Shown here one piece after another: positions 1 to 41,140 of a DNA stretch of 41,140 nucleotides. A program made the translations under genes and the position numbers. The notes under the pieces were generated by a model. That model did no database searches and was not told the origin of the DNA. It saw only the letters and a list, made by a program, of their open reading frames with translations. Source of the stretch: Hydrurus foetidus (taxonomy: Eukaryota); contig UYFQ01000174.1 of assembly GCA_900617105.1 (NCBI GenBank), positions 1-41,140 on the forward strand, given 5' to 3'. Position 1 is the stretch's first letter, and each line of letters starts with the position of its first letter.

Positions 1-207
1 TGTAGTCCGGATAGGAAGTAGGTCGATAGAAAGAAGGTGTTAGTTAGTTACAGGCTCTAAGCTAGAAGCTAGGATAACTTCTACGAGTAGGCTAGAGCTA
101 GCTAGCAGCTGCGCTAGAGATGTATGTGTACAGTAGGCGGTAGGATCGGATGGATCGGGACTAGGTCCGGTACGGCCCGTAGGCCCGGTATAGCCGGTCC
201 GACCACA
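1..207 (-). repeat. 3' LTR of E1
   Basis: TGTAGTCC...GACCACA; near-identical to 6553-6759; abuts the PPT. Confidence 0.95.
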
Positions 208-221
208 TCACCCCCACTTAT
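208..221 (-). other. Polypurine tract of E1 (ATAAGTGGGGGTGA)
   Basis: Purine-rich tract immediately before the 3' LTR. The same ATAAGTRGGGG core precedes the LTRs of E3, E4 and E5. Confidence 0.85.
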
Positions 222-443
222 CTTTTTTCTGAAGAAAAAGAACCTATGACGCGACCACCACGTTTTGTACAAAAATCTAATACAACTAAAACTAACTAAA
301 GGAAGAATAAAGAAAAAGATTACAAATATGTAAATCTCATAATACATTGAAATGTATAAAAATAAAAATCTATACAAATAGACTGGGTGGTGGGTCGGTC
401 AAGGTGATAAGGTGGGTGCCTAGTACCATGTACTTGCGCACGA

Positions 444-545
444 GACCTCGATACGTAATTATGTCAGATTTTTACTGACTAAAACCATAAAACCTCATAG
501 AGGGAAAATTAGGAAAAATCTTCAAAAGATAATACGTTCGAGATC
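444..545. ncRNA. Conserved structured 3'-UTR element, E1 copy
   Basis: TTATGTCAGATTTTTACTGAC...AATCTTCAAAAGATAA core inside a closing stem; shared with E3, E4 and E5, with compensatory stem changes. Confidence 0.65.
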
Positions 546-551
546 AGCAAC

Positions 552-3500
552 TTAGGCTGATGTCTCAATGTTTTTGGGAATGAAATGTTTCATTTTATTA
601 TCCCGTAAATAATCATGGAGTGCTTCACAGAGCCGTAGTGATTTCCACGGCTCCCATGTATTATGAGAGTCATCGTAGTTGAGCCATTTAACATGGAACG
701 ACATTGTAGTCGGTTTCTTGGTGTCACCAGCGTGACCCAGAACTTTCTCAACCACGAACTCCATGTAATCGCGACGAGCAGTGTCAGCAGGTATATCTAC
801 CTCTGGGTCATAATTGAATATTTTCAAATTTTTGACATGAACACTTCGTGTCTTGTGGTTTACAAGATTAGCGAGAACGTACTCGGACCCCTTAAAGGAG
901 ACAATACAGTAAGGGCCATGCCACTTAGTATGTAATCGAGTTGGAGGTCGATCAGTGTATCGGCATAAGACATATGACCCCACGGGGAACACAGTCGCTG
1001 ATTCAGCTGACGCGGCGTTTTTAGCATCCGCTTTTAACAAAGTTTGAACCGCAGTTTCAAGTACTTTGTCTTGTACACTTATCAAATCTGATATGTACGT
1101 TGATCTTGAATGTGTTCCGACACTTAAGTGTGGAGTGAGAATACCACGATTCAAATCAAGTTTGTTCCCGAACAATAAATGAGCGGGGCAGACACCTGTG
1201 CGTCTATTAACTGAACTGTTAATGATACGTTGCACGAATGGGATTGACTTAGCATATCCCTCAAGGGTTTGTTTATCAAAAACTAAACCTCTTAAGTGTC
1301 TATTCACCTCTTTGTTGACTCTTTCAACAATTGCATTCTCTTGTTTCGAGTAAGCAAGGGTGAGATTATGTGGTGTCCCACAAAGATCTAAGAATTCTTT
1401 GATCAATTCATTTGCGAAATGTGATCCTCGATCAGATCTAATCATATTTGGTGATCCAAATCGACCAAAATGCGCAAGCAAACAGTCAGCTGCTGATTTA
1501 GCATCTGCGTCTGCACACCAGAACAATTCTGTCCATCGTGTGAATGTATCGATGATGACTAGGATATAACCTTTGTCAGGAAATGGACCAATATAGTCAA
1601 CATTTAGCGTATCGAAGATAGCATAATTTGAAGTTGCAAAATGAGACGCATTGATCTTAGGATCTTTTGCACTCAACTTTTGACAACACGGACAGTTCTG
1701 TATGAACGTACGTACATGTTGTTTCATGTGTTTCCATACTTGTTGTAAACTAAACAACCGAGTAAGGGTACGGTCTACGCCGTTGTGACCGACAATTGCA
1801 TTGTGGCACATTTGAATGTATTCTAACTGATCGTCTGAAGCCGGTTCTATGACCGTCAGAGCTGATACAGTGAAAGAAGATGATGAAGTAGGAAGTAATT
1901 CCAATTCTTCTGTTCGTAACGGCAGAGCAATTTCTGTCAGATTAGGACAAAGCCTTGACAGTGCGTCTGCCAAAACATTTGAAGTACCGGGTACGAATAC
2001 CACGGTAAAATCTAGTTCTTGCATAGCAATGAACCATCTCGCCACCATTGAGGTAGGATTTTGTTTCATATATGTTATGTTCAAGTGATCCGTATGGATA
2101 GTGAACGTACGATCTCTGATTAGATAATCGAGTTGTGTACAACAATAGAAGATGGCATAAGCCTCTTTTTGTATCGTAGACCACCTTATTTGTGTGGGTG
2201 TCAACGATTTGCTAATGAAAGCAATTGGTTGCCAAATGGCACCAACAACTTGGAATAAGACCCACCGATACCAAAGTCGGATGCGTCTGTATACAAGCGG
2301 ATGTCTAACTTATTGTCATCAATGAAGTACATTAATGGACAACGAGATATAGCAATCTTTGTGTCAACAAATGAGTTGGTGCTCTTTTGAGTCCAAACTA
2401 CAGCAGAACGTCTCGGAGCAGAGTGATCAATCATATCCTGCATTGGCTTAACCAAAGTGGAATGCATTGGTACAAACTGTCGAAAATAGTTCGCTAAACC
2501 TAAAAATGACCTGAGTAAGGTTAAATTTTTAGGTATAGAAAAGTTTAAAACTGTTTCTATCTTCTCTTTTGACATGGATAAACCATCTTTGTCAACGACT
2601 CTGCCAACGTATTCAATACGTGGAAGGCCGAAACGGCATTTTTTAGCTTTGAGTCTTAGACCCTTAAGTCTAAATCTTGCAAAAACTTTTTCAAGTTAGT
2701 AAGAAACTCTGCTTCACCCTTGCCATATACTATACAATCGTCGAGATACATCTCGCAACAATGATAGATAAGGCCATAGAGGACCGCCGTTACCATCTGC
2801 TCTTGAAAGTAAGAGGGGGCTCGACACGGACCAAAGGGCAGTCTCGTAAACTGAAATACCCCCGCAAAGCATATGAATGCCGTAAAAATGCGGTGTGCGG
2901 GGTGTAACGGTGCTTGATGGTAACCAGCGGTTAAATCCATCACACCAAAAATATCCGGTTTTTTATTACCGATCCTCTCAAAGAGGTGTTTGATATTTGG
3001 TAACGGGAATGAGGCCGGCTTAAGACACCTATTAAGTGGCCGGTAATCGATGCAGGTTCGAAATTTACCGGGTGACTTAGTTACTATTACAGGATGACTG
3101 TAATAAGCGGCATCTGATCGCTCTATAACCCCTGATGCAAGCATCTCGTCAAGGTTTTCTTTGAGAGCAACCTCTTTTGTTGATGACTGGGGACGTACCG
3201 GCGTACGGTTTTCGTCTTTTTCCCACAACTCAAGTGGGATGTTAATCTCAAAGGGTTTAAGTGACGCTGGTTTCTCAGCTAATTGATCACTGAAGATGTC
3301 TGAATATTCAGAACAGAGCTCTCGGAGCTTCCTTTGAAAGCTTTCATCTCCTTCAAAGGTAATCTCTTTGAGGAAATCCTCTGGCCCTTTGGGCAAGTCA
3401 TCTTGACTAGGTTTCTCCGCCAAGAAGGGGGCAAACGTATCTATCTTGCCATCGTCAATCTCGTCAACTGAGAGTGCGACACCACTGGGCCATAAAGGCT

Positions 3501-6552: not shown

Positions 6553-6759
6553 TGTAGTCCAGATAGGAAGTAGGTCGATGGAAAGAAGGTGTTAGTTAGT
6601 TACAGGCTCTAAGCTAGAAGCTAGGATAACTTCTACGAGTAGGCTAGAGCTAGCTAGCAGCTGCGCTAGAGATGTATGTGTACAGTAGGCGGTAGGATCG
6701 GATGGATCGGGACTAGGTCCGGTACGGCCCGTAGGCCCGGTATAGCCGGTCCGACCACA
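6553..6759 (-). repeat. 5' LTR of E1
   Basis: 207-bp copy of 1-207. Confidence 0.95.
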
Positions 6760-7872: not shown

Positions 7873-10800
7873 ATGTCCCTCTTACCATCTCATCATGATC
7901 AATTTCGATCGAAAGAATACTGGGACCGTTTCTTTCTCGAGAGGGGTGGTGAACAATTCGAGTGGTATGGCACTTACGAGGAAATCAAGGTCGGTAGCCT
8001 GGGCGTTACCGCATTGCAAATGCAATGGATAGCTGACGTCGACAACTGTTTATCCAGCGCTACTGCAGAAGTAAATCATAACCATCACACTATTGGCAGG
8101 TACATGTAGGTCGAACAGTACTGAAGAAAGATCGCATCTTGATCATCGGATGTGGGAATTCTGAGATATCAGCAGACTTTTTCGACAATGGTTATCAGTC
8201 CATAACAAACATTGATTTCTCTCCTCTCGTCATAGAGGAGATGATAACGAAGAACACTCAGAGGTATTATGATGTTTTGAATAAAATGGCCCACTTTGTG
8301 CAGTTCGCTGCATTGAGCTGAAGTCACTGAATTGGAATGAGCATAACATGGCAGTCTGTTTATTTTGGATGTGCAGGCCAGCGATGAAGTGGCATATCGG
8401 GGACATGACATGCATGCCTGAGTATGAAGACAGCGCGTATGATGTTGTGTTTGACAAAGGGGCACTAGATGCTCTGATGAGTGAAGACACGCCTGCTGTG
8501 ATTGAGAAGGCTGGAGTCATGTTCGCAGAGATCTCAAGGCTTCTGTCTGAGAAGGGAAAGTACATCTGCATCACTCTAGCGGAGTCGTTTATCTTAAAGA
8601 CTCTATTAGCCCACTTTACAGCTCTGAATTGGAACATTACAGTAGAGACGGTGCAAGGAAAGAAGCCCTCTCCATTTAAGCCATTCTATGTCGTGATATC
8701 CAGACATGGCTCACTTGGCAGAACAATAGATCTCATGATCGATTCTTTAGGAAACGCTTCAGTGCCGAGACAAGTCTCTTCTACAGTGGCTATGGAAGAG
8801 GTACAGTACATGTCAAATAAAACAAGTTTTATCTCTGTTTTCTAAAATGTTTTTTCTATCGTATAGTCTGACTGATCATCATTTTTCTGAAACTCGTCAT
8901 CCAAATTTCCGACACTTCTAATGCAGGATTGAAATGTGCACCATTTTCTTCCTTTCATTTTTCCACACTTTTCTGAACATAACTTGCTTTCTAATTATCT
9001 GTTCCAATGTAGATACCCCGCATTCAAGAATTCAATCAAAAAAGATTCGAACTCGGTGCAGTACGTGTGGGGCGATTTGAACTGTTAGACTTCATGGCAC
9101 CTGTCATCCTCTCCCTCTCTCTCTCTGCATCAGAAGGGAAGACAGGAGGGGAGGGGGAGATACCGAGATTCTCCGTGACTCTGTTGGATGCGTCTTACAA
9201 AGCCGCGAGGTGTCTAGCAGTGACAGCGATTTCAACGATATATTGGCTCTCATCAACTCAATAAATGCCCACCAGCACCCCACCTAATGCCTATCATGAC
9301 AGACACTACAGCAATGACAATAAGTGATTCACGATGAGTACTGTGTCATTGTTCGATTGTGACTGACTGGCCATATCAACTCCATCTGTCTTGATAATTT
9401 ACGGCATACAGCACAACTTGAACTCCTCCTTATCCTACCCTACCCTCCGCTATTCCATCTCTCGTATACTCCCTAATTCCATATCATGCATCATCTTCCA
9501 TTCCTTGCTTTATGTTTTGTCACCTATCGCTTCTCTTCTGTACTCTTCATGAATCCAAGATCCCTCGCGTTAGATACTACAACACCTCTTAAGTCACTCA
9601 CTGATTTACTCTCATGCATTCACTTACTCGTTTACTCTTTCCTCCTTCATTCACTCCCTCTCACTTACTCACTCACTCACCCACTCTTCCTCTTCTTAGA
9701 TCGTGTGTTGTGTTTTTCGTCCCTCCGGGGCGGGAATCTGAGTTCCAGTTCTCCACCCAGACGGGCCTACAGGGCATAGCCGAACAGGCACAGTGCAGGT
9801 ACAGAAATGTGATGCAATATAGTATTTTTACAAGCCCGATTTCGTAAACTACGACTTCTTGTCTTTTGTGCACTCAAATTCACTGTTATCGCACGCTGCT
9901 CAATCCGTGTGGAGCGGTAAATGAGTGAAAACGGTATGCAAAAACACTCCAACGTCACTCTTTCTTCGAGTTGAAAGCACGTGTTATTATGTCATGTTAT
10001 GATATGAGATAACGTCAAGTGTTACGTCAACAACGTCATAAGTTCCTGCGCAAGAGCATGACTCGCTTCTCAGGTTCCTCACAACCTTGTAATTCAACAT
10101 TATTTGACTTGTTCATTCATTCTTCTCAGACGTCTGCTAGCAGTGCGATGTAACCGCCCTCATTTATTCCCTGAAATGAAAGAGCTACAGAACGAATTGT
10201 CCCCAATCGCTAACAGTCTAAAACCCAGGTGCACTATGTAGTTGCGGTCGAAGTCATAACTAAACATGAACACTATTTTTTGACCATATAAATGACCGCT
10301 GAGAACAACGATTCCCACTCCTACATTCGTCAGAAATGCTTTATGGAAATCCTCCAAAGCGCTGTTTTGTTCTGACTTCCACAACGTCACACCACTTATT
10401 CTCGTTGAGCGTGATTTGATGATCTCTGAGATCAATTTAGTCACTTCAATTTGTTTCTCACCGCGCTGTTCCGTGCTGTTGTTGTGCACTGTACTCAGAT
10501 GTTGCCATCCTCGCAAGTGCTACGTCATAATCTGATCTGACACATTGTGCTGTGCTGTGCTGTACTGTGCTGTGGTGTGCTGTACTGTACTGTGCTGTGG
10601 TGTGCTGTGCTGTAGTGTGCTGTGCTGTAGTGTGCTGTGCTGTGGTGTATGTTGCTATCGTCTGACATGACTGCACTTCACTTTAACTGACCAGCTGTCG
10701 TCGCATCTGCTGAACCTTCTCCTCAATATCTGAAGACTTCACATCATGCCATGTCATGTCATGTCATGTCATGGTGTTACTGTCCAGCACGTCTAATATT

Positions 10801-21017: not shown

Positions 21018-21267
21018 CGTCAGAAATTTAGGAGCCGGGTACCATTTTACCATTTGGCGAATGCACCTTTTGTTGCGTTGGTCGGACCTCAATAATTTTA
21101 CTTATTATTGAGGCCTTCGATGATAAATGATAACCTATGTGAACGGCAGCAGATCAAGAGATGCACCATGCAGGCCCCCAGAGTGCGTTGGGTTCAGTTG
21201 AGTTGTGGAAAAAACAAATAACGCGGTTTCAGATCCTAAATCCAAGCTAACCCCTTGATTCCTCTGA

Positions 21268-21670
21268 TCTTGGTAAAACCGTTCCTTTAGGGATAACTGA
21301 TCCCGGTACTGAACTGGTAGGTTGCTAGTGATTCGTTGAGAATACACCCTGTGAAATGCAAGCCTAGCCAGAGCAGCAGAAAAGTCAACTAGTGTAGGTA
21401 TAATGACGTGATGTCATATAGTCTCTTTTAATAAGAAGTGGTTAGCATGTCAAAACATCCACTTCATCAGCTGTATACTAACTGCTAGTATGCTACTTGG
21501 TGTGATTCATCACTCCAACATTTCATTCCTGATGTGACCGCGGGTTGGTGTATAGTATCAACCGGTCTACAAGGAATCATAAAACGTATGCCTAAGCTAC
21601 AACTATCCGGACTGGATATCGCTCATGATATTATCCCCAAAGGGATTCCTAGTCTACGCATATCCCAACA
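21268..21670 (-). repeat. 3' LTR of the copia element
   Basis: Copy of 26234-26636; preceded on the minus strand by a short PPT, AGGGGTG (21671-21677). Confidence 0.95.
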
Positions 21671-21849
21671 CACCCCTAATGTCATCGACATTCAGTCACA
21701 TGGTTGTTTAGGTATCATGCAAATTATTTATCATCACATGGTCTTAAAACGTGGTAATTATCATAACTAATATAGGTTTCTGCGTAGTTATCATCATAAC
21801 CATATAGTCAAAAATCACGGTGACTTTTTGAGTGTGAGATAAAGAGATG

Positions 21850-24800
21850 TTACTTTTGTCCCATTATTTTCTTGAACATTTTGTCGAAAATCGCACCTTG
21901 CAACGGTTTTGTAAAGTAGTCGGAAGTCATTTCCGCCGTGGGAACATAGACAATGTCCACTGCACCGTTCTTGATATAGTCCGAGATCCAGAATTTCCGG
22001 ATCTCGATGAACCTGGTGGTCTCTGCGGTAGACCGACCTTTCGTGAGTAGTGTGATACAGGATTGGTTATCCTGCTCCAATCGCACTGGTTGTGGATCGT
22101 ATCCTTGAAGGCGGATGAAGTCTGCGAGCCATAATGGGATGTTCATCCCGTCGGACACCGCGATGATCTCAGCCTCCGTGCTCGACTTGGAATTCAGCTT
22201 CTGGACCTTGGAACTCGTGATGAAAAATCCCACCCCTAATGTGACGCACATTCCTGAGGTTGATTTCATGTTGTCGCGATTCGCAAATGCAGCATCAATT
22301 GATACCGTGACTCTTGGTGGGAGGTCAGCTTTGAGTCGTAGGGGTACGTCACGTACGTACTTCGCATAGCTGATGACCCTGTCGAGCTTCTTGTCATCCT
22401 CGTAGGATGGTGCTTTCACTCGTTTTGAGAGTTCGCCCACCACTGTTGTGAGGCTCGGATGTGCACGCGAGCATGTCCATGCAATGGTTGCGGTGTCGGT
22501 GTGATATATTTCTGCATCCTTGGCACTCAACAGCTCACTGTCAGGGGTTCGATCAAACAGGTGAGGAGCACCTGGTGAGTGCGGAATTCCAGCGGGTTTG
22601 GTTCCGCGGTCTTTGTGAGTCTTCTCTCTTGCAGCGACAATGTCTTGGATCATCCCTGCTTGTGAAACTTTCACGTATCCTGTTTCACTGTAGTCCCAGG
22701 TCAGGCCTAGGTACGATACGATAGGCCCCTGTGTTGTCCTGAATTGGCCGTAAACTTTTAGTGTGGGTAGGAACTTCTCCGTGACGTTCATGATCGAACG
22801 CAGGATCTTGTTTCGCTGTGGTTGTGTCAGTTGTGACATGTGCACCCCTGAGAATGTGTCCTTTGCGAGGAGCGATTTGACCTCTGACTCGATGGCGAAT
22901 GCAGTCTTTTCCGGGAAGAGCTTCAGTCCCCGAGTAACTGACATCATGGACCAAACGTGCGGATTGTCGATTTCTTGTGCTTGAGTTGATACTTCTTCCG
23001 CTGTTAAGTTAAGTCGGTCGATTGGTTTCTTCAGTCTGGATGACTTTTCCCTTGGTTCTATGGGTCGAGGTGTGTACTTACGTACGTTCACCGGTGCACT
23101 ATCAAAAGCGTTCTCCTCCGGAATCTCTTCAACGGGCTCCGTTGGTTCCGATATTTCGCCAGAAGTTTCATGTAGGTTTTCTGTGTCTGGAACCGTATCA
23201 GTCTCACCCCGAATCTCCATTGGCGATTGTGTCGGTGGGGATTCAAAACCGATTGGTGCGGTGGGAATTGACGGCGGAAATGGGTCCTGAATGGGTCCGC
23301 GGTCTCCGATTGGTGCCGCTGTCGGTGGTGCTGCACGAGTAATGTTTCCGACGGCATCATTGTCGACATCATTTGTGATGTCTCGGTCGTGGAATGTGAA
23401 GATCGGGTCGATCGAGGTATGCAGCTTGTTCTTTGCCGCCCACCCATTCACGGTAGTGATAACGATGGGTGGGATCGGCAGTACCACATAGTGGTTCGCA
23501 TTGATGGTCGCCCGATTGTCCAACCGAAGGAATGCATGTGTTCCTGTGCCATTCATCTTCGGCTCCAGGTAAAGGCATCCAATCGTGCGCTGGTCCATGC
23601 CATTCGACATGGTGCGGTTGGTGACCTGACAGTAGGTGCCGAAAGGTGGACCGATGTCCATCTTTGTATCAGCCTTTCTCCCGAAGAAGGCCTCAAAGGG
23701 AGATATTTTGTCCGTTCGTGTGGACGAAGGGAACAACAGTAGTTTCTTGGAGCAGCTCAGCACCAAGTGATTCATCATCGCGTCAGCGACTAGGTAGGGT
23801 AGGCTGTGTATGGTGGCCCGAATGGTCTCCTTCAGGTGGCGGATCATCCGCTCCACGATGTGATCATGCTGACCTGGTCCGACGAGAGAGACGGCCACGC
23901 CCATTGCATTCATGTCTCCTGCAAGCGCCGCGATCCCTCGTTCATTGTCGCTGGTGAAGCGGGTGATCTTGATACTGCGGGATCCGATGGTGCCGAACAT
24001 CCTCCTGATGCTTTGTCTCAGGATTGGCGCTGTGAGATTCTCCACGCAAGCAACGAGGACAATGCCAAGAGGATGTGTGATGGAAACCAGGAATGGTTGC
24101 TTATTGACAAACATGACATCACAATGCATGTGTTGCTCATCAGAATCACGGTGACTTTTAAAATCACGGTGACTTTTAAAATCACGGTGACTTTGCAATG
24201 CTGGGAATGGTCGGGCTCGAACTGTTCGCCCTTTCAGAGCAGCGATGTTGGCACCCCAGATCGCAGTTGCTCGATTAACATCTTCAGGAAGGATGTCGCA
24301 GTTGAGGAATGCTCCGGCGTTCAAAGCAGAGATCATCTTGGCGTCGGGTGGGAATCCAAGGCTTGCTTGTAGCCGTCGGGCATCGAAGCTTCGAGCAACC
24401 TCGCGCTTGGAGTACGCTGCCTCATTTGCCGTTGTTGTTGGCAAAGGAGCTGAGAAAAAAGGTCCTCCTGCCTTATTGAGAGCGATGGCGGGGTTGGCTG
24501 ACTCTAATCTCGACTTGTTGGAGCTCTCATGTCGAGGCTCTGGTCGTGATGCAAGATCGCAAACATAGAGTCCACCTCGATGTTGAAAGCGATAGGTTTG
24601 CTTTGCTGTGTGCACCAGGAAAGCATCTTGATCAACATGTCCTCCACGTTGGAACTCCCAGTTGTGTCCTTGCAAAAGGATATCCGAAGCTGAAATGATG
24701 GAGAGCGCCGCCCGATCATCGAAGTGAACGATGCCGATATCACCAAGTCTGCCGACTTTTGTCACTGTCAAGGATCCATGCAAGCCCTTAAACACAGTTG

Positions 24801-26206
24801 GCCGACACGTCCAAATCTCTGAGAGAACATCAGCGCTTGTGATGATTGTGCCGGTGGCACCGGTGTCGAAAATCGCTTCGGTCGATGATGGTTGGATTGA
24901 AGTTCGGGTGGCCTGTAGACTGATTCCGTCACCGTCGTCGGGTGGAGATCCTTTCAACGCGACATTGCATCTTCGATCATCATCTTCCATTTCTTCATCC
25001 TCTTCATCATGCATGTTGCCAAATGATGTGTAATATGAGGAGTGACTGCTCGCCTTGTTTGCCGGCTCTGGATTTTTCTCAAATCGCACCTTTTTCGGCT
25101 CGTCTTTCGCCTTGCTCCGGCACTCAGATTTTCGGTGGCCAAACTTGCCACAGTTGAAACACTCGCCTTCGAACTTTGTTTTTGGCTTGTCTTTGTCAGA
25201 TTCAGCCTTGGTGTCTTTGCCGGAAGGTTTGTCTTTGTGACCCTTGCCCTTCCCCAACTGCTTGCCACCCTTTTTTCCTCGATCTTCAGTCTGCTGCTGA
25301 GCTCCGAATGCTGAATGTGGCGTTGTCGGAGGGAGGGTTGCATTGATATTCTCAATGAATGAAGTCTCAAATCTTGTTGCTCGTAGGATTGCGTCCACGA
25401 GTGTCGCTGGATATATGTCTCGATCCGTTTGCTGTTTGGCATTAATCAGGTACATCTTGTAGCCGTGGTATGCCGGAACTGATCCATCGAGTCCATCAAT
25501 GAAGCGCATTGATTGCTGCTTTGGCTTTGGCTGTTCTTCCACTGGTATTCCAGTCGTGGTGAGTCTTTCAAATGTTTTGATAGCACGCCTGCCATAACTT
25601 AGAATCACCTCGCCATGTTCCATTCTCAGTCCAAACCACTCGCTAAGGGCTTTCTGACGGTCGAGTTCTTCATTTCCATCTGGTCGAGCCGTGACGAGGC
25701 GCTTGATTACACGAAGCAACTCGAGTGGGTCGTCTTCTTCGCAGGCTATGAATGCAGCGTCGACAGCGAGTAGCGAGTTGAGCTGTGCTGAACACATCTC
25801 TCGAATGACTGTGTAGCAGTTCTCCTTGTCGATCCTCTGTTGGGTCAGTAACTTGAGGTACTGGTTGTTCCTGCCGCTGAGTAGTCCCATAAAGATCTTG
25901 TTTTTATCTCCAGTTGGGTCGTTCTCTTCTGATCGCCTCCAGTTCTGCCTCAGAGGCCATCGGTGGTAGGTGCTTCCGGTATGCCGGTGCAACAGTCACT
26001 TTCATCGGATCCTGACAGATTGACTGTAGATCCTGATAGTTATCTCTGCAGTACGCCTTCAGCTTAGCTATGATTGAATCCCACTGCTTGTGGCAATCAT
26101 GGCTGATCTCAACCAATCCTGCGGGTATGGTCCTCTTTTCAAGGGATCCATTTGCACCCTCATCTTTCCTCGGTGGCACACCACCTTTGGAACCTTTTTG
26201 ACTCAT
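21850..26206 (-). pseudogene. Copia gag-pol polyprotein with an N-terminal frameshift (~25930) and an in-frame deletion of the RT core
   Basis: Motifs: CFNCGKFGHRKSEC knuckle; FDTGAT protease; HCDVMF / TSDNE / VERMIR integrase; SIDAAF, STEAE, EQDNQ and SDYFTKPL RNase H. No KARL, YGL or YVDD RT motifs. The ATG at 26206 is in a different frame from the 1380-aa ORF. Confidence 0.9.
24144..24194. repeat. 18-bp tandem repeat x3 (AATCACGGTGACTTTTAA; encodes SHRDFK)
   Basis: Direct reading; the same motif recurs at 21811-21828. Confidence 0.9.
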
Positions 26207-26223
26207 GATAAAGTCTTTAAAGG

Positions 26224-26233
26224 CTTCTTATTA
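26224..26233 (-). other. Non-tRNA primer-binding position TAATAAGAAG, complementary to LTR 26395-26404
   Basis: Directly abuts the 5' LTR; no TGG start; exact 10-nt complement within the LTR. Confidence 0.65.
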
Positions 26234-26636
26234 TCTTGGTAAAACCGTTCCTTTAGGGATAACTGATCCCGGTACTGAACTGGTAGGTTGCTAGTGATTC
26301 GTTGAGAATACACCTTGTGAAATGCAAGCCTAGCCAGAGCAGCAGAAAAGTCAACTAGTGTAGGTATAATGACGTGATGTCATATAGTCTCTTTTAATAA
26401 GAAGTGGTTAGCATGTCAAAACATCCACTTCATCAGCTGTATACTAACTGCTAGTATGCTACTTGGTGTGATTCATCACTCCAACATTTCATTCCTGATG
26501 TGACCGCGGGTTGGTGTATAGTATCAACCGGTCTACAAGGAATCATAAAACGTATGCCTAAGCTACAACTATCCGGACTGGATATCGCTCATGATATTAT
26601 CCCCAAAGGGATTCCTAGTCTACGCATATCCCAACA
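26234..26636 (-). repeat. 5' LTR of the copia element (TG...GA termini)
   Basis: Boundaries fixed by the TSD and by LTR-LTR identity. Confidence 0.95.
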
Positions 26637-31393: not shown

Positions 31394-31569
31394 GGCTAGC
31401 GCTTGTAGGAAGGGCATCAAGACTAACGCTTCTTAAGGAAGAGTGCAAAAAAATTATTTGATTAAATTTTTTATTTATTATTATCATTATTTTTTTTAAT
31501 CAACTAAACTAACGCTTCTTGTGAAGGGTGCGAAAACTACGTAGACTAGCGCTTCGGAAGGAAGGGCAT
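31394..31569. repeat. Four ~25-nt hairpin-like repeats (CTARCGCTT...GAAGRG(T)GC) in the E3 3' UTR
   Basis: Copies at 31394, 31421, 31507 and 31544, in an A-B-B-A arrangement. Confidence 0.7.
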
Positions 31570-31639
31570 AACTCAAAACAAAGGTTAAACAATGTATGAA
31601 CAAAATGTGAAAGGAGGTAAGTGTGCCGAGTGAACTCCT

Positions 31640-31748
31640 CGTGAATGATTATGTCAGATTCTTACTGACAAACCTCCATAAAAAAAATCTCAATTGAAAT
31701 TGAGGCCAATAAAAAATTTAGGAGTAATCTTCATAGATATCATTCACG
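31640..31748. ncRNA. Conserved structured 3'-UTR element, E3 copy
   Basis: Closing stem CGTGAATGAT/ATCATTCACG (includes the pol stop codon); GTCAG-ATTCTTA-CTGAC; AATCTTCA. Confidence 0.65.
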
Positions 31749-34700
31749 GGTTCTCCATTACAGAGGGGGGCGCAAGACGGAACTCTCTTGGAATAACATT
31801 TAACATGTTGTTTTCGCGCAGATACTTATGGAGTTGATCTGTAGAGCGCATGGACTTCCAAGGTTCCCATGAATTATGTGATGAATCATAGTTCAACCAC
31901 TTGACATAAAATTTCATTGTGGATGGAGCTTTTTTATTTCCGATATGTGAAATAACTGCTTCAATGAAAAATTCCATGTAGTCACGACGAGCTGTGTCAG
32001 TCGGAGATTTCTGAGTCGGATTAAACTTAAAAAGTTTCAATTGACTAGCATGAACCTCACGTGTTTTCTTCGTGATAAGATTCTGAATAGTGTATTCACT
32101 TTTATCAAAGCGTATAACTTTGAAAGGGCCAAGCCACTGACAGTGTACCCTAGTCTCTGTTCCCTTAGGGTTGAGAGCTAATACATAAGAATCAATTTGA
32201 AAAACTGTTCTTGGTTCAGTATTAACTGAAACGCGTCTCGCATCAGCAGTCATCAACTGGGTTCTAGCCGCAGTGTTGAGTTGTTGTTGTATAAGCAACA
32301 TATTTGCTATAATAGTCGACGCTCTAGTCGGTAGTAGATTTGGGTCAGGAAATCTAATCAAGATACCTCTATCCAGGTTTAATTGATTTCCGAACAGCAG
32401 ACTAGCTGGTGAAGCTCCTGTACTAGAATGTACAGAACTGTTTATTATTCTCTGCACAAAAGGCAGGCAAAGCTTATAAGCATTAAGATTTGTTAAATCA
32501 AAAGTAAACGCACGTAAGTGTCGATTAACCTCTTTATTAACCCTTTCCACAATGGCATTCTCTTGCTTGGAGTATGCCAGGGTAAGATTGTGGGGGTACC
32601 CGTACGGAGTAAAAATTCCCGTACGGTATCATTCATGAAATGAGATCCCCGGTCTGATCGGATCATGCTGGGTGCACCGAATCTTCCAAAGAATTGGAGT
32701 AAACATTCACATGCAGAATGTGCTGTATTATCAGCACACCAGTAAAGTTCAGTCCAACGAGTGAACGAGCAAATCATGACTAACACATATCCCCCGTCGG
32801 GGTATGGACCTATGTAGTCAATGTTGACTGTATCAAACGGTCTATATGTAGACGTTGTGTATTTGTGAATGTGAACCGGGATTTTGATCACACTCATCTT
32901 TTGACAGCAAGCGCAGGTGCTGATAAAGTCCCTAACATGGGCTTCCATGTCGAGCCATTCTTCGTCTAAACTGGATAGTTTACTAACGGTACGAGCAATG
33001 CCACCATGTCCCACCATGGAATTATGACACATTTCGATTGCCTCGAGTTGTAACTCGGTAACTGGTGCAAGTTCATGCAGAGCAGATAGATGAACTTGTA
33101 GTTCTATCTCTTGAGTAGGTGGATGAAGAACAACTAATTGTGTTAGATTAGGACATAGTCTCGAAAGGGCATCGGCTATGAAGTTGTTTGTGCCAGAAAC
33201 ATAGTTTACTGCGTAATCAAGCTCTTGTAGAGCCATTGACCAACGGTTAACCATTGCAGATGGATCTGAATTGATGAAAATAAGATTCTTGTGATCAGTA
33301 TGAATCATAAATTTCCTATCCCTGAGGAGAGAGTCCAATTGCTTGCAGCAATAGTAAATAGCATAAGCTTCTTTTTGAATGGTTGACCATTTTACTTGTG
33401 TTGCGCTAAGCGACTTACTCACAAATGAGATTGGATTTTTAACTGAATTCACGACTTGGAATAGTACTCCACCTATTCCATAATCGGATGCATCGGTAAA
33501 CAGCTCGATGGGAGACACTTCATCTAAAAAATGAAGAAGCGGGCAGCGGGATATGGCTTTTCTTATTGCAAAGAAAGACTTATCTGCCTGTTCGTTCCAG
33601 TCAATTTTGGATTTTTTACGCCCTTTAGGGTCGATCATCTTTTGAAGTGGAGCGACTATGTCGGCATGAAAGGGAACAAAGTTCCTGAAGTAGTTCGCCA
33701 AGCCCAATAAACTTCGTAAAGAAGTAAGGGTCATGGGTTTCGGGAAATTAAAAACCGTTTCTATCTTCTCTTTAGACATAGAAATGCCTTGGGAAGAGAT
33801 TTGTCGACCGACATGATCGATTTAGGTCATACCAAATCTACATTTCTTTGCTTTAAGCAGTAAACCAAAACAACGAAAACGTCGAAAGACTCGTTCTAGT
33901 CTCTCCAGGAACTCATCCTGACCTCGTGCAAAGACGATACAATCGTCCAAGTACATTTCACATGAAATGTAAATGAGTCCATTGAGGACTATTGTCGCCA
34001 TCATCTCTTGGAAGTAAGAGGGGGCTCTCCGAGGACCGAAGGGTAGTCTGGTGAATTGGTATACACCATAATAGCAAATGAATGCAGTCAGGACCCTGGA
34101 TGCATGATCCATGGGTGCCTGATGGTAGCCTGAAGTTAGATCCATAACTCCGAATATGTTTGGCTGTTGATGGCCGATTCGCTCGAAAAGAGCCCGAATG
34201 TTCGGCAGCGGCCAGCTGGCAGCCTCGGTGCATTTATTCAGATTTCGGTAGTCAATGCAAAATCTGTATAAATCAGCTGTTCTCTGTACTATGACAGGAT
34301 GGCTATAATAAACCGCCGTCGATTCTTCAATGACTCCCGAGCGCAACATCTCATCGATGGCTCGTTTTATCTCACGTTCTTTTCGAACGGTTTGCAGACG
34401 CACGGCAGTCCTATTTCTAGGACTTTCCCATTCTCTCTTGTTGACTTTTATAACAAAGGGAGGAAGTCTAGCAGGTTTAGCTGCTAGTTTATCGCTAAAT
34501 ATGTCTGCGTATTTAAGACAGAGTCGTCTAATAAGCAATTGTTGGTGTTCCGTCCCTTCAATTGTTATTTGTGACAAAAAGTCCTCTGGCCCTATAGGCG
34601 GAGCATTCTGCTTAATGTGATTAGGCAAGAATGGGAGAAAAGTATCGGTCTTCTCATTATCTATCTCGTCTGAAGAGATTACGATACCACTAGGTGTTTC

Positions 34701-37156: not shown

Positions 37157-37364
37157 TGTAGTCCTGATGGAGAAGAAGATGGGTAGGAGAGCGGGTTGTG
37201 CTTAGGTGACAGACTATGCTAGAAGCTAGGTAACTTCTACGAGTAGGCTGCAGCTAGCTAGCTAGTCGTGGTAGGGCTGTATGTGTACTGTAGGCGGAAG
37301 GATCGGGTGGATCGTGACAAGGTCCGGTACGGCCCGTAGGCCCGGTATACCCGGTACGACCACA
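37157..37364 (-). repeat. 3' LTR of E4
   Basis: TGTAGTCC...GACCACA, 208 bp, alignable to the E1 LTR. Confidence 0.9.
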
Positions 37365-37574: not shown

Positions 37575-37677
37575 GGCCTCGATACGTAATTATGTCAGAT
37601 TTTTACTGACTAAAACCATAAAACCTCCATCGAGGGAAAATTAGGAAAAATCTTCAAAAGATAATACGTTCGAGATC
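37575..37677. ncRNA. Conserved structured 3'-UTR element, E4 copy
   Basis: Nearly identical to E1 444-545, although the distal 3' UTR has diverged. Confidence 0.65.
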
Positions 37678-37684
37678 AGTATTC

Positions 37685-40465
37685 TTAGACTGATGCCTCA
37701 AGATTCTTGGGGATAAAGTGTTTCATTTTATTGTCCCTCAAGTATTCATGGAGTGCTTCACAAAGCCGTAGGTTTTTCCACGGCTCCCATGAATTATGAG
37801 TGTCATCATAATTAAGCCATTTGACTTTGAATGACATTGTCGTAGGCTTCTTTTTGTCACCTGAGTGACTAAGAACCTTTTCCACTACAAATTCCATGCA
37901 GTCACGACGAGCAGTGTCAGCAGGTACATCGACCTCTGAATCATAATTAAATTTTTTTTAATTTTTAATATGCACACTTCGTTCCTTGTGTGTCACAAGG
38001 TTTGCGAGGATATACTCGGATCCTTTGTAGGAGATAACACGGTACGGGCCATGCCACGTAGTGTGTAACCGAGTAGGCGGTCGATCTGTGTAACGACATA
38101 AAACATATGTCCCTATAGGGAACACTGTCGCACACTTAGCTGATGCCGCGTGTTTAGCGTCTGCTGACACTAAAGCTTGAACAGCTGAATCAAGGACCTT
38201 GTCCTGAACGCTGATCAAGTCCTCAATGTATGTTGATCTAGAATGTGTATTCACACTTAAGTGTGGTGTTAAAATACCACGATTCAAGTCAAGCTTGTTT
38301 CCGAACAGTAAATGTGCGGGCGCAACTTTAGTGCGTCTATTAACTGAACTGTTAATGATGCGTTGCACAAATGGGATTGACTTAGCATATCCCTCTAGGG
38401 TCTGTTTATCAAAAACAAGACCTCTTAGGTGTCTATTTACCTCTTTGTTGACTCTCTCAACAATCGCATTTTCCTCTTTCGAGTATGCGAGGGTTAAATT
38501 ATGTGGCGTACCACAAAGATCTAAAAAATCTTTTATTAAATCGTTTGCGAAATGGGATCCTCGATCCGATCGTATCATGTTTGGCGAGCCGAAACGGCCA
38601 AAATGAGAGAGTAGGCAGTCGGCCGCTGATTTTGCGTCTGCATTTGCACACCAAAATAGTTCAGTCCAACGTGTGAACGTGTCGATAATGACAAGGATAT
38701 AACCTTTGTCTGGGAATGGACCGATATAGTCAACATTCAGCGTATCGAAGATAGCATAATTCGACGTTGCAAAGTGAGACGCATTGATCTTAGGATCTTT
38801 TGCGCTCAGCTTTTGACAGCACGGACAGTTCTGTATGAACGTACGTACATGTTGTTTCATGTTCTTCCAAACTTGTTGTAGACTGAACAACCGAGTAAGG
38901 GTACGATCTACACCATTGTGACCAACAAACGCATTGTGGCACATTTGGATGTATTCTAACTGATCGTCTGACGCTGGGTCGATAGCTGTCAAAGCTGACA
39001 CAGTGACCGACGACGACGAAGTTGGAAGTAATTCCAATTCCGTTATTCGTAACGGTAATGCGATTTCTGTCAAGTTAGGACATAATCGCGACAATGCGTC
39101 GGCTAAGGCATTTGACGTGCCAGGTACGAAGACAACCGTAAAATGAAGTTCTTGCATAGCAATGAACCATCTTGCTACCATTGAGGTAGGGTTTTGTTTC
39201 ATATACGTGATATTCAAATGATCAGTATAGATTGTGAATGTACGATCTCTGATTAAATAATCGAGTTGTGTACAACAGTAGAATATAGCGTACGCTTCTT
39301 TCTGTATAGTTGACCACCGTATTTGTGTTGGTGTCAATGATTTGCTTATAAAAGCTATTGGTTGCCAAATGGTATCAACCACTTGGAAAAGGACACCGCC
39401 GATTCCAAAATCAGACGCGTCTGTATATAATCGGATATCCAATTTATTGTCATCAATGAAGTACATTAATGGACAACGAGATATCGCGATCTGTGTATCG
39501 TGAAAGCTGTTGGTACTTGTTTGAGTCCATACAACGGCCGAACGTTTCGGTGCAGAATGATCTATCATATCTTGCATTGGTTTAACCAAAGTTGAATGCA
39601 TCGGTACAAACTGTCGAAAATAGTTCGCCAATCCTAAGAATGATCTTAACAAAGTTAAGTTCTTAGGTATAGAAAAGTTTAACACTGTTTCTATTTTTTC
39701 TTTTGACATGGATAAACCATCTTTGTCAACCACTCTGCCAACGTATTCAATACGAGGTAAACCAAAGCGGCACTTTTTGGCTTTGAGTCTAAGACCCTTA
39801 AGTCTGAATCTTTCAAAGACTTTATTCAAGTTCTTAAGAAACTCTGCTTCACCCTTGCCATATACTATACAATCGTCGAGATACATCTCACAACAATGAT
39901 AGATAAGGCCATAGAGGACCGCCGTTACCATCTGCTCTTGAAAGTAAGAGGGGGCACGACACGGACCAAAGGGCAGTCTCGTGAACTGAAAAACCCCCGC
40001 AAAGCATATAAACGCTGTGAATATGCGGTGTGCGGGGTGTAACGGTGCTTGATGGTAACCCGCGGTTAAATCCATCACACCAAAAATATCCGGTTTTTTA
40101 TTACCGATCCTCTCAAAAAGATGTTTGATATTCGGCAGGGGAAAAGAGGCGGGAGTCAGGCACTTATTAAGTGGCCGGTAATCGATGCAGGTTCGAAATT
40201 TACCGGGTGACTTAGTTACGATTACAGGATGACTGTAATAAGCAGCATCTGACCGCTCTATAACCCCCGACGCAAGCATCTCATCGAGATTCTCCTAAGA
40301 GCAACCTCCTTAGTCGATGACTGGGGACGTACCGGCGTACGGTTTTCGTCTTTTCCCACAACTCAAGGGGATGTTAATCTCAAAAGGTTTGAGTGACGCT
40401 GGTTTCTCAGCTAACTGATCACTAAAAATGTCTGAATATTCAGAACAGAGCTCTCGGAGCTTCCT
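37685..40465 (-). pseudogene. E4 pol fragment (RT, RH, IN, chromodomain)
   Basis: 773-aa ORF highly similar to E1 Pol; frame break at ~37958 and 1-nt deletions at ~40295-40370. Confidence 0.92.
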
Positions 40466-40924
40466 CCAGACCTGAAAGGCAAAAGAGAAGGGAAATCTAA
40501 AGGCTAAAAGGAGCTAGTTAGTTAGGGATGCAGACAGAAGGTACGCTAGTAACTTCTGCAAAGCAGCACAAACTAGCTAGTGACTGATAGTCGTGGCTGT
40601 GAACACGAAGGTACTAAGGTGGAAACAGCATCTAATCGGCTGAATGGGGTAGCAGACCCTGAGGGAGCCACACTACCCCTACTTATCTCTCGTTTTCTCA
40701 TTTCTCTCTCCCTCTCCCTCTCTCTCTCCCTTGGTGAGTCTCTAGCTACAGTGTGTAACAAAACAAATATGACTCAAGCGTGATAAAAAAAATGCAGAAA
40801 AAAATAATAAAAAAATACAAAAATGCAGTAATAAATACGTACGAAGTATACAGATATTTGTACATGTGAGAGTTTGGGGGAGTGAGAAACGAGAGTGCCT
40901 AGATGTGTTGTAACTACGTGTTCC

Positions 40925-41021
40925 CCTACACATTTATGTCAGATTTTTACTGACTAAACCTCCTGAAAAGCAACTTAAAGTTGTAAAAATGAGGAGGAAT
41001 CTTCAAAAGATAATGTGTAGG
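40925..41021. ncRNA. Conserved structured 3'-UTR element, E5 copy
   Basis: Closing stem CCTACACAT/ATGTGTAGG; GTCAG-ATTTTTA-CTGAC; CCTCCT/AGGAGG; GCAAC/GTTGT; AATCTTCAAAAGATAA. Confidence 0.65.
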
Positions 41022-41036
41022 TCGTTCCTTGGGAAC

Positions 41037-41138
41037 TTACTTTTCTGTCGGAATTATTTTCGACATGCCGTGAAGGCGTAAATATGTGTGAAGAGCGTCT
41101 GTAAGACGAAGATTCTTCCACGACTCCCACGTATTGTG
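41037..41138 (-). CDS. E5 Pol C-terminus (chromodomain end), partial
   Basis: Translates as HNTWESWKNLRLTDALHTYLRLHGMSKIIPTEK*. Confidence 0.88.
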   Translation of the reverse strand, partial: HNTWESWKNLRLTDALHTYLRLHGMSKIIPTEK

Positions 41139-41140
41139 TG

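Follow-up and report, generated by a model that had tools for sequence, protein, structure and literature searches.

A circularly permutable four-way RNA junction behind pol in Hydrurus foetidus gypsy elements, with apparent relatives in marnavirus-like RNAs and the Drosophila R2 3' UTR

What is the structured RNA that four LTR retrotransposons of Hydrurus foetidus carry directly behind pol, and is it confined to such elements? We addressed this question in a 41,140-nt stretch of DNA (the window), for which an earlier reading of the letters alone (the sequence-only reading) had placed four copies of a covarying motif just after the pol of gypsy elements. This placement was borne out: the 21-mer TTATGTCAGATTYTTACTGAC occurs as four exact copies (at 459, 31649, 37590 and 40934), the window holds no further copy at up to three mismatches, and none of 100 shuffles contained any match. 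GTGCC(T/G)AG is found at 416, 31623, 37546 and 40895 and in one unrelated copy at 8762. The alignment likewise contains AATCTTCA and the stems (closing and middle) and inner hairpins that this reading listed. In each of the four elements (E1, E3, E4 and E5), the motif lies on the minus strand, 3' of the pol stop codon and before the polypurine tract and LTR:

1..207, minus strand: E1 3' LTR, 99% identical to the 5' LTR at 6553-6759
208..228, minus strand: E1 polypurine tract
250..402, minus strand: long-range E1 stem predicted by single-sequence folding, looping out an AU-rich spacer between motif and polypurine tract
448..542, minus strand: E1 motif copy, 69.7 bits with the covariance model, of which it is a training row
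454-462 and 529-537, minus strand: E1 P1, 3' strand and 5' strand, respectively
463-479, minus strand: E1 P4
480-483, minus strand: E1 linker UUUA
484-516, minus strand: E1 P3 with its U4/U4 internal loop and hairpin
517-519, minus strand: E1 linker AUU
520-528, minus strand: E1 P2
552..2309, minus strand: last reading frame of E1 pol (RNase H, integrase, chromodomain), stop 552-554
About 31338, about 37365 and about 40672: polypurine tracts before the LTRs of E3, E4 and E5, respectively
31638..31750, minus strand: E3 motif copy (P4 31653-31669, AUU 31726-31728, P3 internal loop U6/U8)
31744..32628, minus strand: end of E3 pol with chromodomain, stop 31744-31746
37579..37674, minus strand: E4 motif copy, a near-copy of that of E1 (P4 37594-37610, AUU 37649-37651)
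37685..40294, minus strand: E4 pol (RT, RNase H, integrase), stop 37685-37687
40923..41023, minus strand: E5 motif copy (P4 40938-40954, AUU 40998-41000)
41037..41140, minus strand: tail of E5 pol (chromodomain end), stop 41037-41039, the last 32 codons being all that the window holds

The host elements show the features of chromodomain Ty3/gypsy retrotransposons, namely the order RT, RNase H and integrase, a chromodomain, a polypurine tract and an LTR; the E4 pol frame is broken before the chromodomain. A distant cluster of related integrases includes members from Ochromonas/Chlorochromonas danica and from dinoflagellates. The 3' LTR of E1 is expected to contain the poly(A) site, and single-sequence folding predicts stems like that at 250..402 in E4 and E5 as well. 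Between 31130 and 41140 the insertions are nested: the E4 3' LTR (37157-37364) adjoins the 5' region of E3, and the E5 3' LTR (about 40470-40671) splits E4 pol. In the 3' UTR of E3, the sequence GC(A)CCUUC...AAGCG(C/U)UAG recurs four times at intervals (31395-31565, minus strand); none of the other elements has it. The window also holds a eukaryotic NUBPL/ParA plus GBBH-like gene and a young fifth LTR element (21259-26636; LTRs of 412 nt, 99% identical) with a single 1381-aa ORF; in this element we found no motif, no pol domains and no PDB match, the ORF showing a weak zinc knuckle only.

We assign the motif RNA to the minus strand because this is the strand of the ORF, as it is in the plus-strand RNA viruses described below; with pol on the minus strand, the sequences written in the sequence-only reading are those of the antisense strand. 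Folding energy does not decide the strand, since single-sequence folding of the window copies is significant on both (z -2.1 to -5.1), and the count of G-U versus A-C is 16 versus 13. E1 and E4 are near-copies (98% identity over the motif), so the window contains three independent motif lineages. The motif had also been called more conserved than its surroundings. Within the window the difference is modest: in a crude global alignment of E1, E3 and E5, identity is 61-73% over the whole motif, 45-60% over the downstream UTR and 51-58% over the LTR. Better evidence of conservation is the pile-up on the motif of contigs from other samples at 80% likeness. Run X6 reaches a depth of 30,000-44,000 on 452-493, compared with 500-1,100 on the flanks, and runs X17 and X18 cover 441-547 while leaving 309-440 and 573-616 bare; these RNA runs consist of contigs only, from which ends, strand and expression are not readable.

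The motif is a four-way RNA junction, in which the helices P1-P4 are joined by the U-rich linkers AUU and UUUA and one hairpin bears the signature of a UA-handle. In the MAFFT alignment, 86.9% of cells are paired as compared with 73.6% in shuffles, 11 of the 17 pairs show two-sided changes, and sliding the partners cuts pairing to 29-48%; the structure was drawn from the same sequences as were scored, and kinship inflates the covariation counts. None of 500 shuffles reached the score, which supports the proposed conserved, cis-acting structured RNA. The individual parts were tabulated by hand anchoring in 38 retrotransposon copies and 11 circularly permuted copies (see below). At the end of P1, two pairs change together (AU/AU, GU/AC). 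P2 consists of two pairs (CU/AG, CC/GG, UC/GA, GC/GC, AC/GU or GA/UC) and a loop of 3-8 nt, the final base of which is A in 42 of 49 copies. The linker that follows is AUU in 37/38 retrotransposon copies and CUU in three viruses. P3 varies in sequence, with U.U at its first position in 21/38 retrotransposon and 11/11 permuted copies, and leads into UUUA (35/38 and 10/11, respectively). P4 has five pairs, of which the opening ones are G-C, U-A in 38/38 and pairs 3 and 4 show swaps, and its hairpin covaries (GUCAG/CUGAC, GUGAG/CUCAC, GUGGG/CCCAC, GUUGG/CCAAC). Its closure, G-U...A-R-U-C, tolerates inserts of 0-132 nt and is that of a type II UA-handle, which the accessible part of PMC2615604 describes by the signature G-U...A-N-N-C and by two bulged bases that often form pseudoknots. 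Among the retrotransposon copies the signature is kept at G-C in 31/38, U in 33/38 and ARU in 31/38; among the permuted copies, U and ARY are each present in 11/11. The bulge could pair with the linker (AUU:ARU) in 93.9% of cells, but as the changes are solely A/G opposite U, such pairing is compatible with the data and not proven by them. All conserved unpaired bases of the core are U or A, with no conserved unpaired G or C among them. In many elements, including E3 (31744-31746), L034, L039 and L047, the pol stop codon adjoins P1 or falls within it on the 5' strand, and ribosomes terminating there would open this outer helix.

P4 resembles the T-arm of a tRNA in its 5-bp stem ending in G-C, its U...A and its two-base bulge. 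The 7-nt loop of most copies (UUCGACU in L057) resembles a T-loop, and the four helices follow one another in a cloverleaf-like order. Unlike a tRNA, the motif accepts loop inserts of up to 132 nt and lacks the U-turn consensus, CCA and an anticodon; ARAGORN found no tRNA in the window or in ten of the loci.

Relatives of the host elements were collected with a profile of the pol C-terminus, and the best 80 of 153 metagenome loci were analysed. The covariance model, a step that the sequence-only reading had suggested, was built from 28 copies (four from the window, 24 from these loci), and covariation in the family is strong. It matches 36 of the best 80 of 153 loci on the sense strand at E below 0.01, or 33 of the 70 among these 80 loci whose sequence continues for at least 150 nt past the stop; 12 of the 36 matches are not training rows, several of these being near-copies of training rows. 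The match starts at a median of 2 nt from the pol stop and within 30 nt in 28/36, and the LTR follows the stop at 84-624 nt in 27 carriers. The parts that had been called invariant are so within the window, but none of the 36 related carriers has the 21-mer or GTGCC(T/G)AG. When prokaryote genome bins (GTDB set) were scanned with a pattern, ten contigs (L221-L230) matched, nine of which have the same kind of pol 3' end and score 56-72 bits though absent from the model; these nine are evidently mis-binned eukaryotic retrotransposon DNA. In a quick tree of 83 pol fragments, from which identical rows and rows with fewer than 150 aligned residues were left out, the motif is present in 35 of the 37 rows of one branch (SH-aLRT 97), and further carriers appear in three to four other places. 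The tree implies seven motif changes, at least three of them forced by well-supported branches, a pattern that may reflect loss or transfer. A subfamily (L035-L048) has an added tiny GC-GUAAA-GC hairpin in the 3' strand of P3, which resembles the P2 hairpin of the viral contigs L182, L231, L232 and L267. Nothing in the window or in 40 loci matched Rfam at gathering level; a Qrr match on L148/L179 (E about 2) was taken as chance.

The junction is also present in RNA viruses. An 18-nt pattern matches a picorna-like contig on the coding strand, 32 nt after the capsid stop; its best solved relatives are 6shl and 8b38, which we take to be marnaviruses of diatoms. A looser pattern gave 64 matches, of which five were real and added four more viruses; this pattern also fits tRNA T-arms in phages. 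Of 31 matches of a 17-mer hairpin in viral contigs, one contig (L002/L033) was real, and the others, mostly in phage coding DNA, were taken as chance. Capsid-based scans, which are blind to the motif, added L197, L231, L232, L255 and L267. In one such scan, 16 of 80 loci have at least 150 nt after the stop, and the junction was seen in seven of the 14 that were read, three of the seven having themselves been seeds of the query. An automatic scanner for the permuted form recovered four viral copies, a low yield because long inserts defeat it, and the remainder were parsed by hand. In total, the 3' UTRs of ten marnavirus-like contigs contain the junction, and in 10/10 it is circularly permuted: P3 closes the structure, and UUUA, P4, the P1 hairpin, P2 and AUU follow in this order. 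Six aligned permuted copies, one row of which is partly mis-aligned, show 85.1% pairing (0/500 shuffles), and four folded singly gave z -3.1 to -4.3. The facing U-tracts at the viral junction are U4-7/U3-6 in 10/10, the motif lies 160-370 nt from the stop in L178, L179 and L182, and viral contig L194 ends in A's. No relative of pol was found in the viral contigs, and many sister retrotransposons and viruses do not carry the junction. A patchy presence in the 3' UTRs of unrelated RNA replicons is known for another small RNA element, s2m. The motif has no likeness to s2m in sequence or fold; its sequence covaries, its topology is permuted, and it has no Rfam match.

The permuted form points to a known family. 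L226, a permuted copy at 995-1078 (minus strand) on a 1.3-kb contig with no recognisable ORF, scores 28 bits (E 0.0019) against Rfam RF00524 (R2_retro_el, the Drosophila R2 3' UTR), and viral L178 scores 15.9 bits (E 0.23 in 201 nt), both below the gathering score of 38 bits. Both align in register with the core of the model, and none of five viral records reaches the gathering score. The comparison was made with the RF00524 consensus, not with individual R2 sequences. This consensus has a closing helix that ends at the model's 3' end, UUUUA, a 5-bp G-C/U/../G-C stem with U...AAU, an AU-opened helix and AUCUUUcGAAGAUUU, which agrees with E1/E4 at 14 of 15 letters. The window copies contain the same core parts in the circularly permuted order, in which P1 closes and P3 is a stem-loop, and they give no match to RF00524, as expected for the other permutation. 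They lack the upstream 95 nt of R2 and have an added ENE-like loop, and the motif is carried by chromodomain Ty3/gypsy elements and by picorna-like viruses instead of R2 non-LTR retrotransposons. P2, which covaries in the present family, is unpaired in the Rfam model; the R2 model would be revised to include a P2 helix and a UA-handle. The motif had been described as new. This holds for the window copies in so far as they have no Rfam match; by sequence alignment of the permuted relatives, the junction core appears to lie inside RF00524 and P3 resembles an ENE. The strand, the P2 helix, the ENE-like loop and the viral and R2 occurrences had gone unnoticed. In the literature that could be searched, most subscription journals lying beyond it, the core outside R2, its permutation, its presence in chromoviruses and marnaviruses, and its occurrence across three unrelated replicons are unreported, and an earlier mention is possible.

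What could such a junction do? Within P3, a script found facing U-runs of at least four in 31 of 39 distinct retrotransposon copies; it mis-anchored E3 and L046, where U6/U8 and U5/U6 are seen by eye. The runs are only U3 in L080, L081 and L106, and in L087, L091 and L105 the core is present but the upper U-rich loop is missing. All four window copies have this loop by eye, most clearly E5 (CCUCCU/AGGAGG stem, U5/U4). A second pair of U-tracts faces each other at the junction, as U5/U4 in E1 and E4 and only U2/U3 in E3 and E5. In ENEs and double ENEs (KSHV PAN, Evade/ATCOPIA93, rice TWIFB1, PSIV), as here, short G-C stems flank a U-rich internal loop, and the P3 loop fits the ENE description in the accessible part of PMC13541005. 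Another shared trait is the location directly after the ORF, in LTR retrotransposons as in picorna-like viruses, as the available text on Evade and PSIV indicates (PMC12501189, PMC13541005); in Arabidopsis, the Evade ENE at this position is described there as raising RNA stability and mobility (PMC12501189). Double ENEs, as outlined in PMC13541005 where accessible, combine two U-rich loops, a short stem between them and a terminal pocket, and the two loops are matched by the two U-tract pairs of E1 and E4. Unlike a double ENE, the motif has no adenosine triad, and beyond its second U-tract pair three helices meet where a double ENE has a plain stem; unlike ENEs in general, some carriers lack the upper loop, and the triplex is a prediction. 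A scan for plain ENEs, which is insensitive, was positive in 14/33 carriers and 2/37 non-carriers.

The facing U-tracts, a helix that also bears the ENE-like loop, and a location after the stop or before the A-tail lead us to propose, with a probability of about 0.5, that the motif clamps poly(A) in the manner of an ENE and has a new kind of end-cap, made of three short helices. The poly(A) tail would fold back and form U-A-U triples in the P3 loop, then continue along P3 into the facing junction U-tracts, which would act as a second small U-rich loop. P4, P1 and P2, locked by pairing of the UA-handle bulge with AU of AUU, would form a pocket for the 3' end. Such a clamp would slow deadenylation, leaving more full-length RNA to be translated and copied. 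Poly(A) is common to all three kinds of RNA, retrotransposon, virus and R2; D. willistoni R2 elements end in 13-41 A's according to the accessible part of PMC3414825. That a core of about 45 nt recurs, in two wirings, in three kinds of replicon with no relation to one another strongly suggests an autonomous function, which could be studied with a short synthetic RNA; the circular permutation is in keeping with a module for which the entry point of the chain does not matter. We regard as a more tentative extension the idea that a portable, permutable junction grips the poly(A) end and has moved among LTR retrotransposons, protist RNA viruses and insect R2, the Drosophila R2 core then being a poly(A) end-clamp and not only an RT handle. 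If the poly(A) clamp is real, it would be a new end-protecting fold beside ENE and double ENE and a possible compact mRNA stabiliser. It would also bear on how the 3' end of R2 RNA, which is of Pol I origin, is processed or protected, a question left open in the accessible text of PMC11194090.

Several findings speak against a clamp. The junction U-tracts of E3 and E5 are short for an ENE, some carriers keep the core without the upper loop, and in LTR elements the putative poly(A) site lies several hundred nt from the motif. If AUU paired with ARU in the P4 loop, the U's in question would be taken up with no need for poly(A). In viral contigs L193, L194, L196 and L197, we noticed by eye a plain ENE-like stem (GACAAGG..AAUUUU/GGGUUUU..CCUUGUC) in the last 100 nt. 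L194 has this stem without the junction; in L193, L196 and L197 it is separate from the junction, which may therefore do something else.

The AUU:ARU pairing is central to a less probable but serious alternative, in which the motif is a pseudoknot complete in itself and offers a docking site to a host protein or the ribosome, acting as a translation enhancer or NMD shield, with AUU paired to ARU, UUU in the groove and the ENE-like loop a separate add-on. The three pairs are A-U in 38/38, U-A/U-G in 35/38 and U-A/U-G in 34/38 retrotransposon copies, and type II UA-handles often make such pseudoknots, judging from the accessible part of PMC2615604. The motif hugs the stop codon, and the core persists without the upper loop. 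That R2 and picorna-like RNAs are uncapped also favours this reading. However, double-sided changes give the pairing no support (one cell), its first pair is broken in 3/11 permuted copies, the motif is remote from the stop in the three viruses named above, and the docking partner is only hypothetical.

We consider it unlikely that the core serves the polymerase or capsid of its own element as a handle on the template, for RT recruitment, packaging or minus-strand initiation as is held for R2. The match to the R2 3' UTR favours such a handle and counts against a clamp, as the accessible parts of PMC3414825 and PMC11194090 treat this UTR as the binding site of the R2 protein, and the former describes its structure as kept in the protein-less R2 SIDE. 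R2 3' UTRs are, however, poorly conserved between groups (PMC11194090, in the part available). Moreover, LTR RTs, non-LTR RTs and viral RdRps have no relation to one another and prime synthesis in different ways, and many sister retrotransposons and viruses lack the motif. A core shared by three unrelated sets of polymerases and capsids makes a host factor, or the RNA itself, a likelier partner than an element protein. The sequence-only reading raised roles in packaging, in strand transfer, in nuclear export or at the cDNA level; all of these are weakened because the same core occurs in picorna-like RNAs with unrelated capsids and polymerases.

A nuclear export element is accordingly very improbable: retroviruses and IAP elements have their CTE and RTE at this position too, but picorna-like viruses, which carry the core, are expected to replicate in the cytoplasm, and no Rfam export family was matched in the window or 40 loci. 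A new self-cleaving ribozyme, also raised earlier, is at least as improbable. The compact, circularly permuted four-way junction recalls hammerhead and hairpin ribozymes, and UGAAGAUU/AAUCUGAC in the window copies resembles hairpin loop A. In relatives, however, these letters vary with P2 and P4 pairing as helices do, and there is no loop B, the second conserved internal loop that hairpin ribozymes need (PMC8216279, accessible part). No Rfam ribozyme matched in the window or 40 loci, and the conserved unpaired bases include no G or C. A cut would sever the polypurine tract and 3' LTR, or the viral 3' end. The rings of xrRNAs depend on the 5' strand, and the 5' entry strand of the motif differs between permutations (P1 versus P3). 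This leaves little room for an Xrn1-resistant roadblock yielding a subgenomic 3' RNA, despite the motif's place at the 3' UTR start and the other xrRNAs reported in Marnaviridae in the accessible part of PMC10321173.

A sister lineage of chromoviruses that lacks the junction (L061-L075, L090, L113) has a different post-stop motif, CUGACAAGCGUGUGAGAAGAC plus repeated GGGACAAGA. Seven non-carriers (L060, L064, L068, L072, L076, L095, L108) have apparent plain ENEs, with a long stem and facing U-runs, after the stop. A second motif of marnavirus-like 3' UTRs, GCGAGAAGACGCUAUAUAA followed by a stem-loop with CUUCA..UUUU, is conserved in L235, L237, L240, L241, L253, L255, L272, L277, L280, L288, L293, L294, L296 and L298. 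It had no Rfam match in the four loci tested and may be the coremin-type xrRNA mentioned in the accessible part of PMC10321173.
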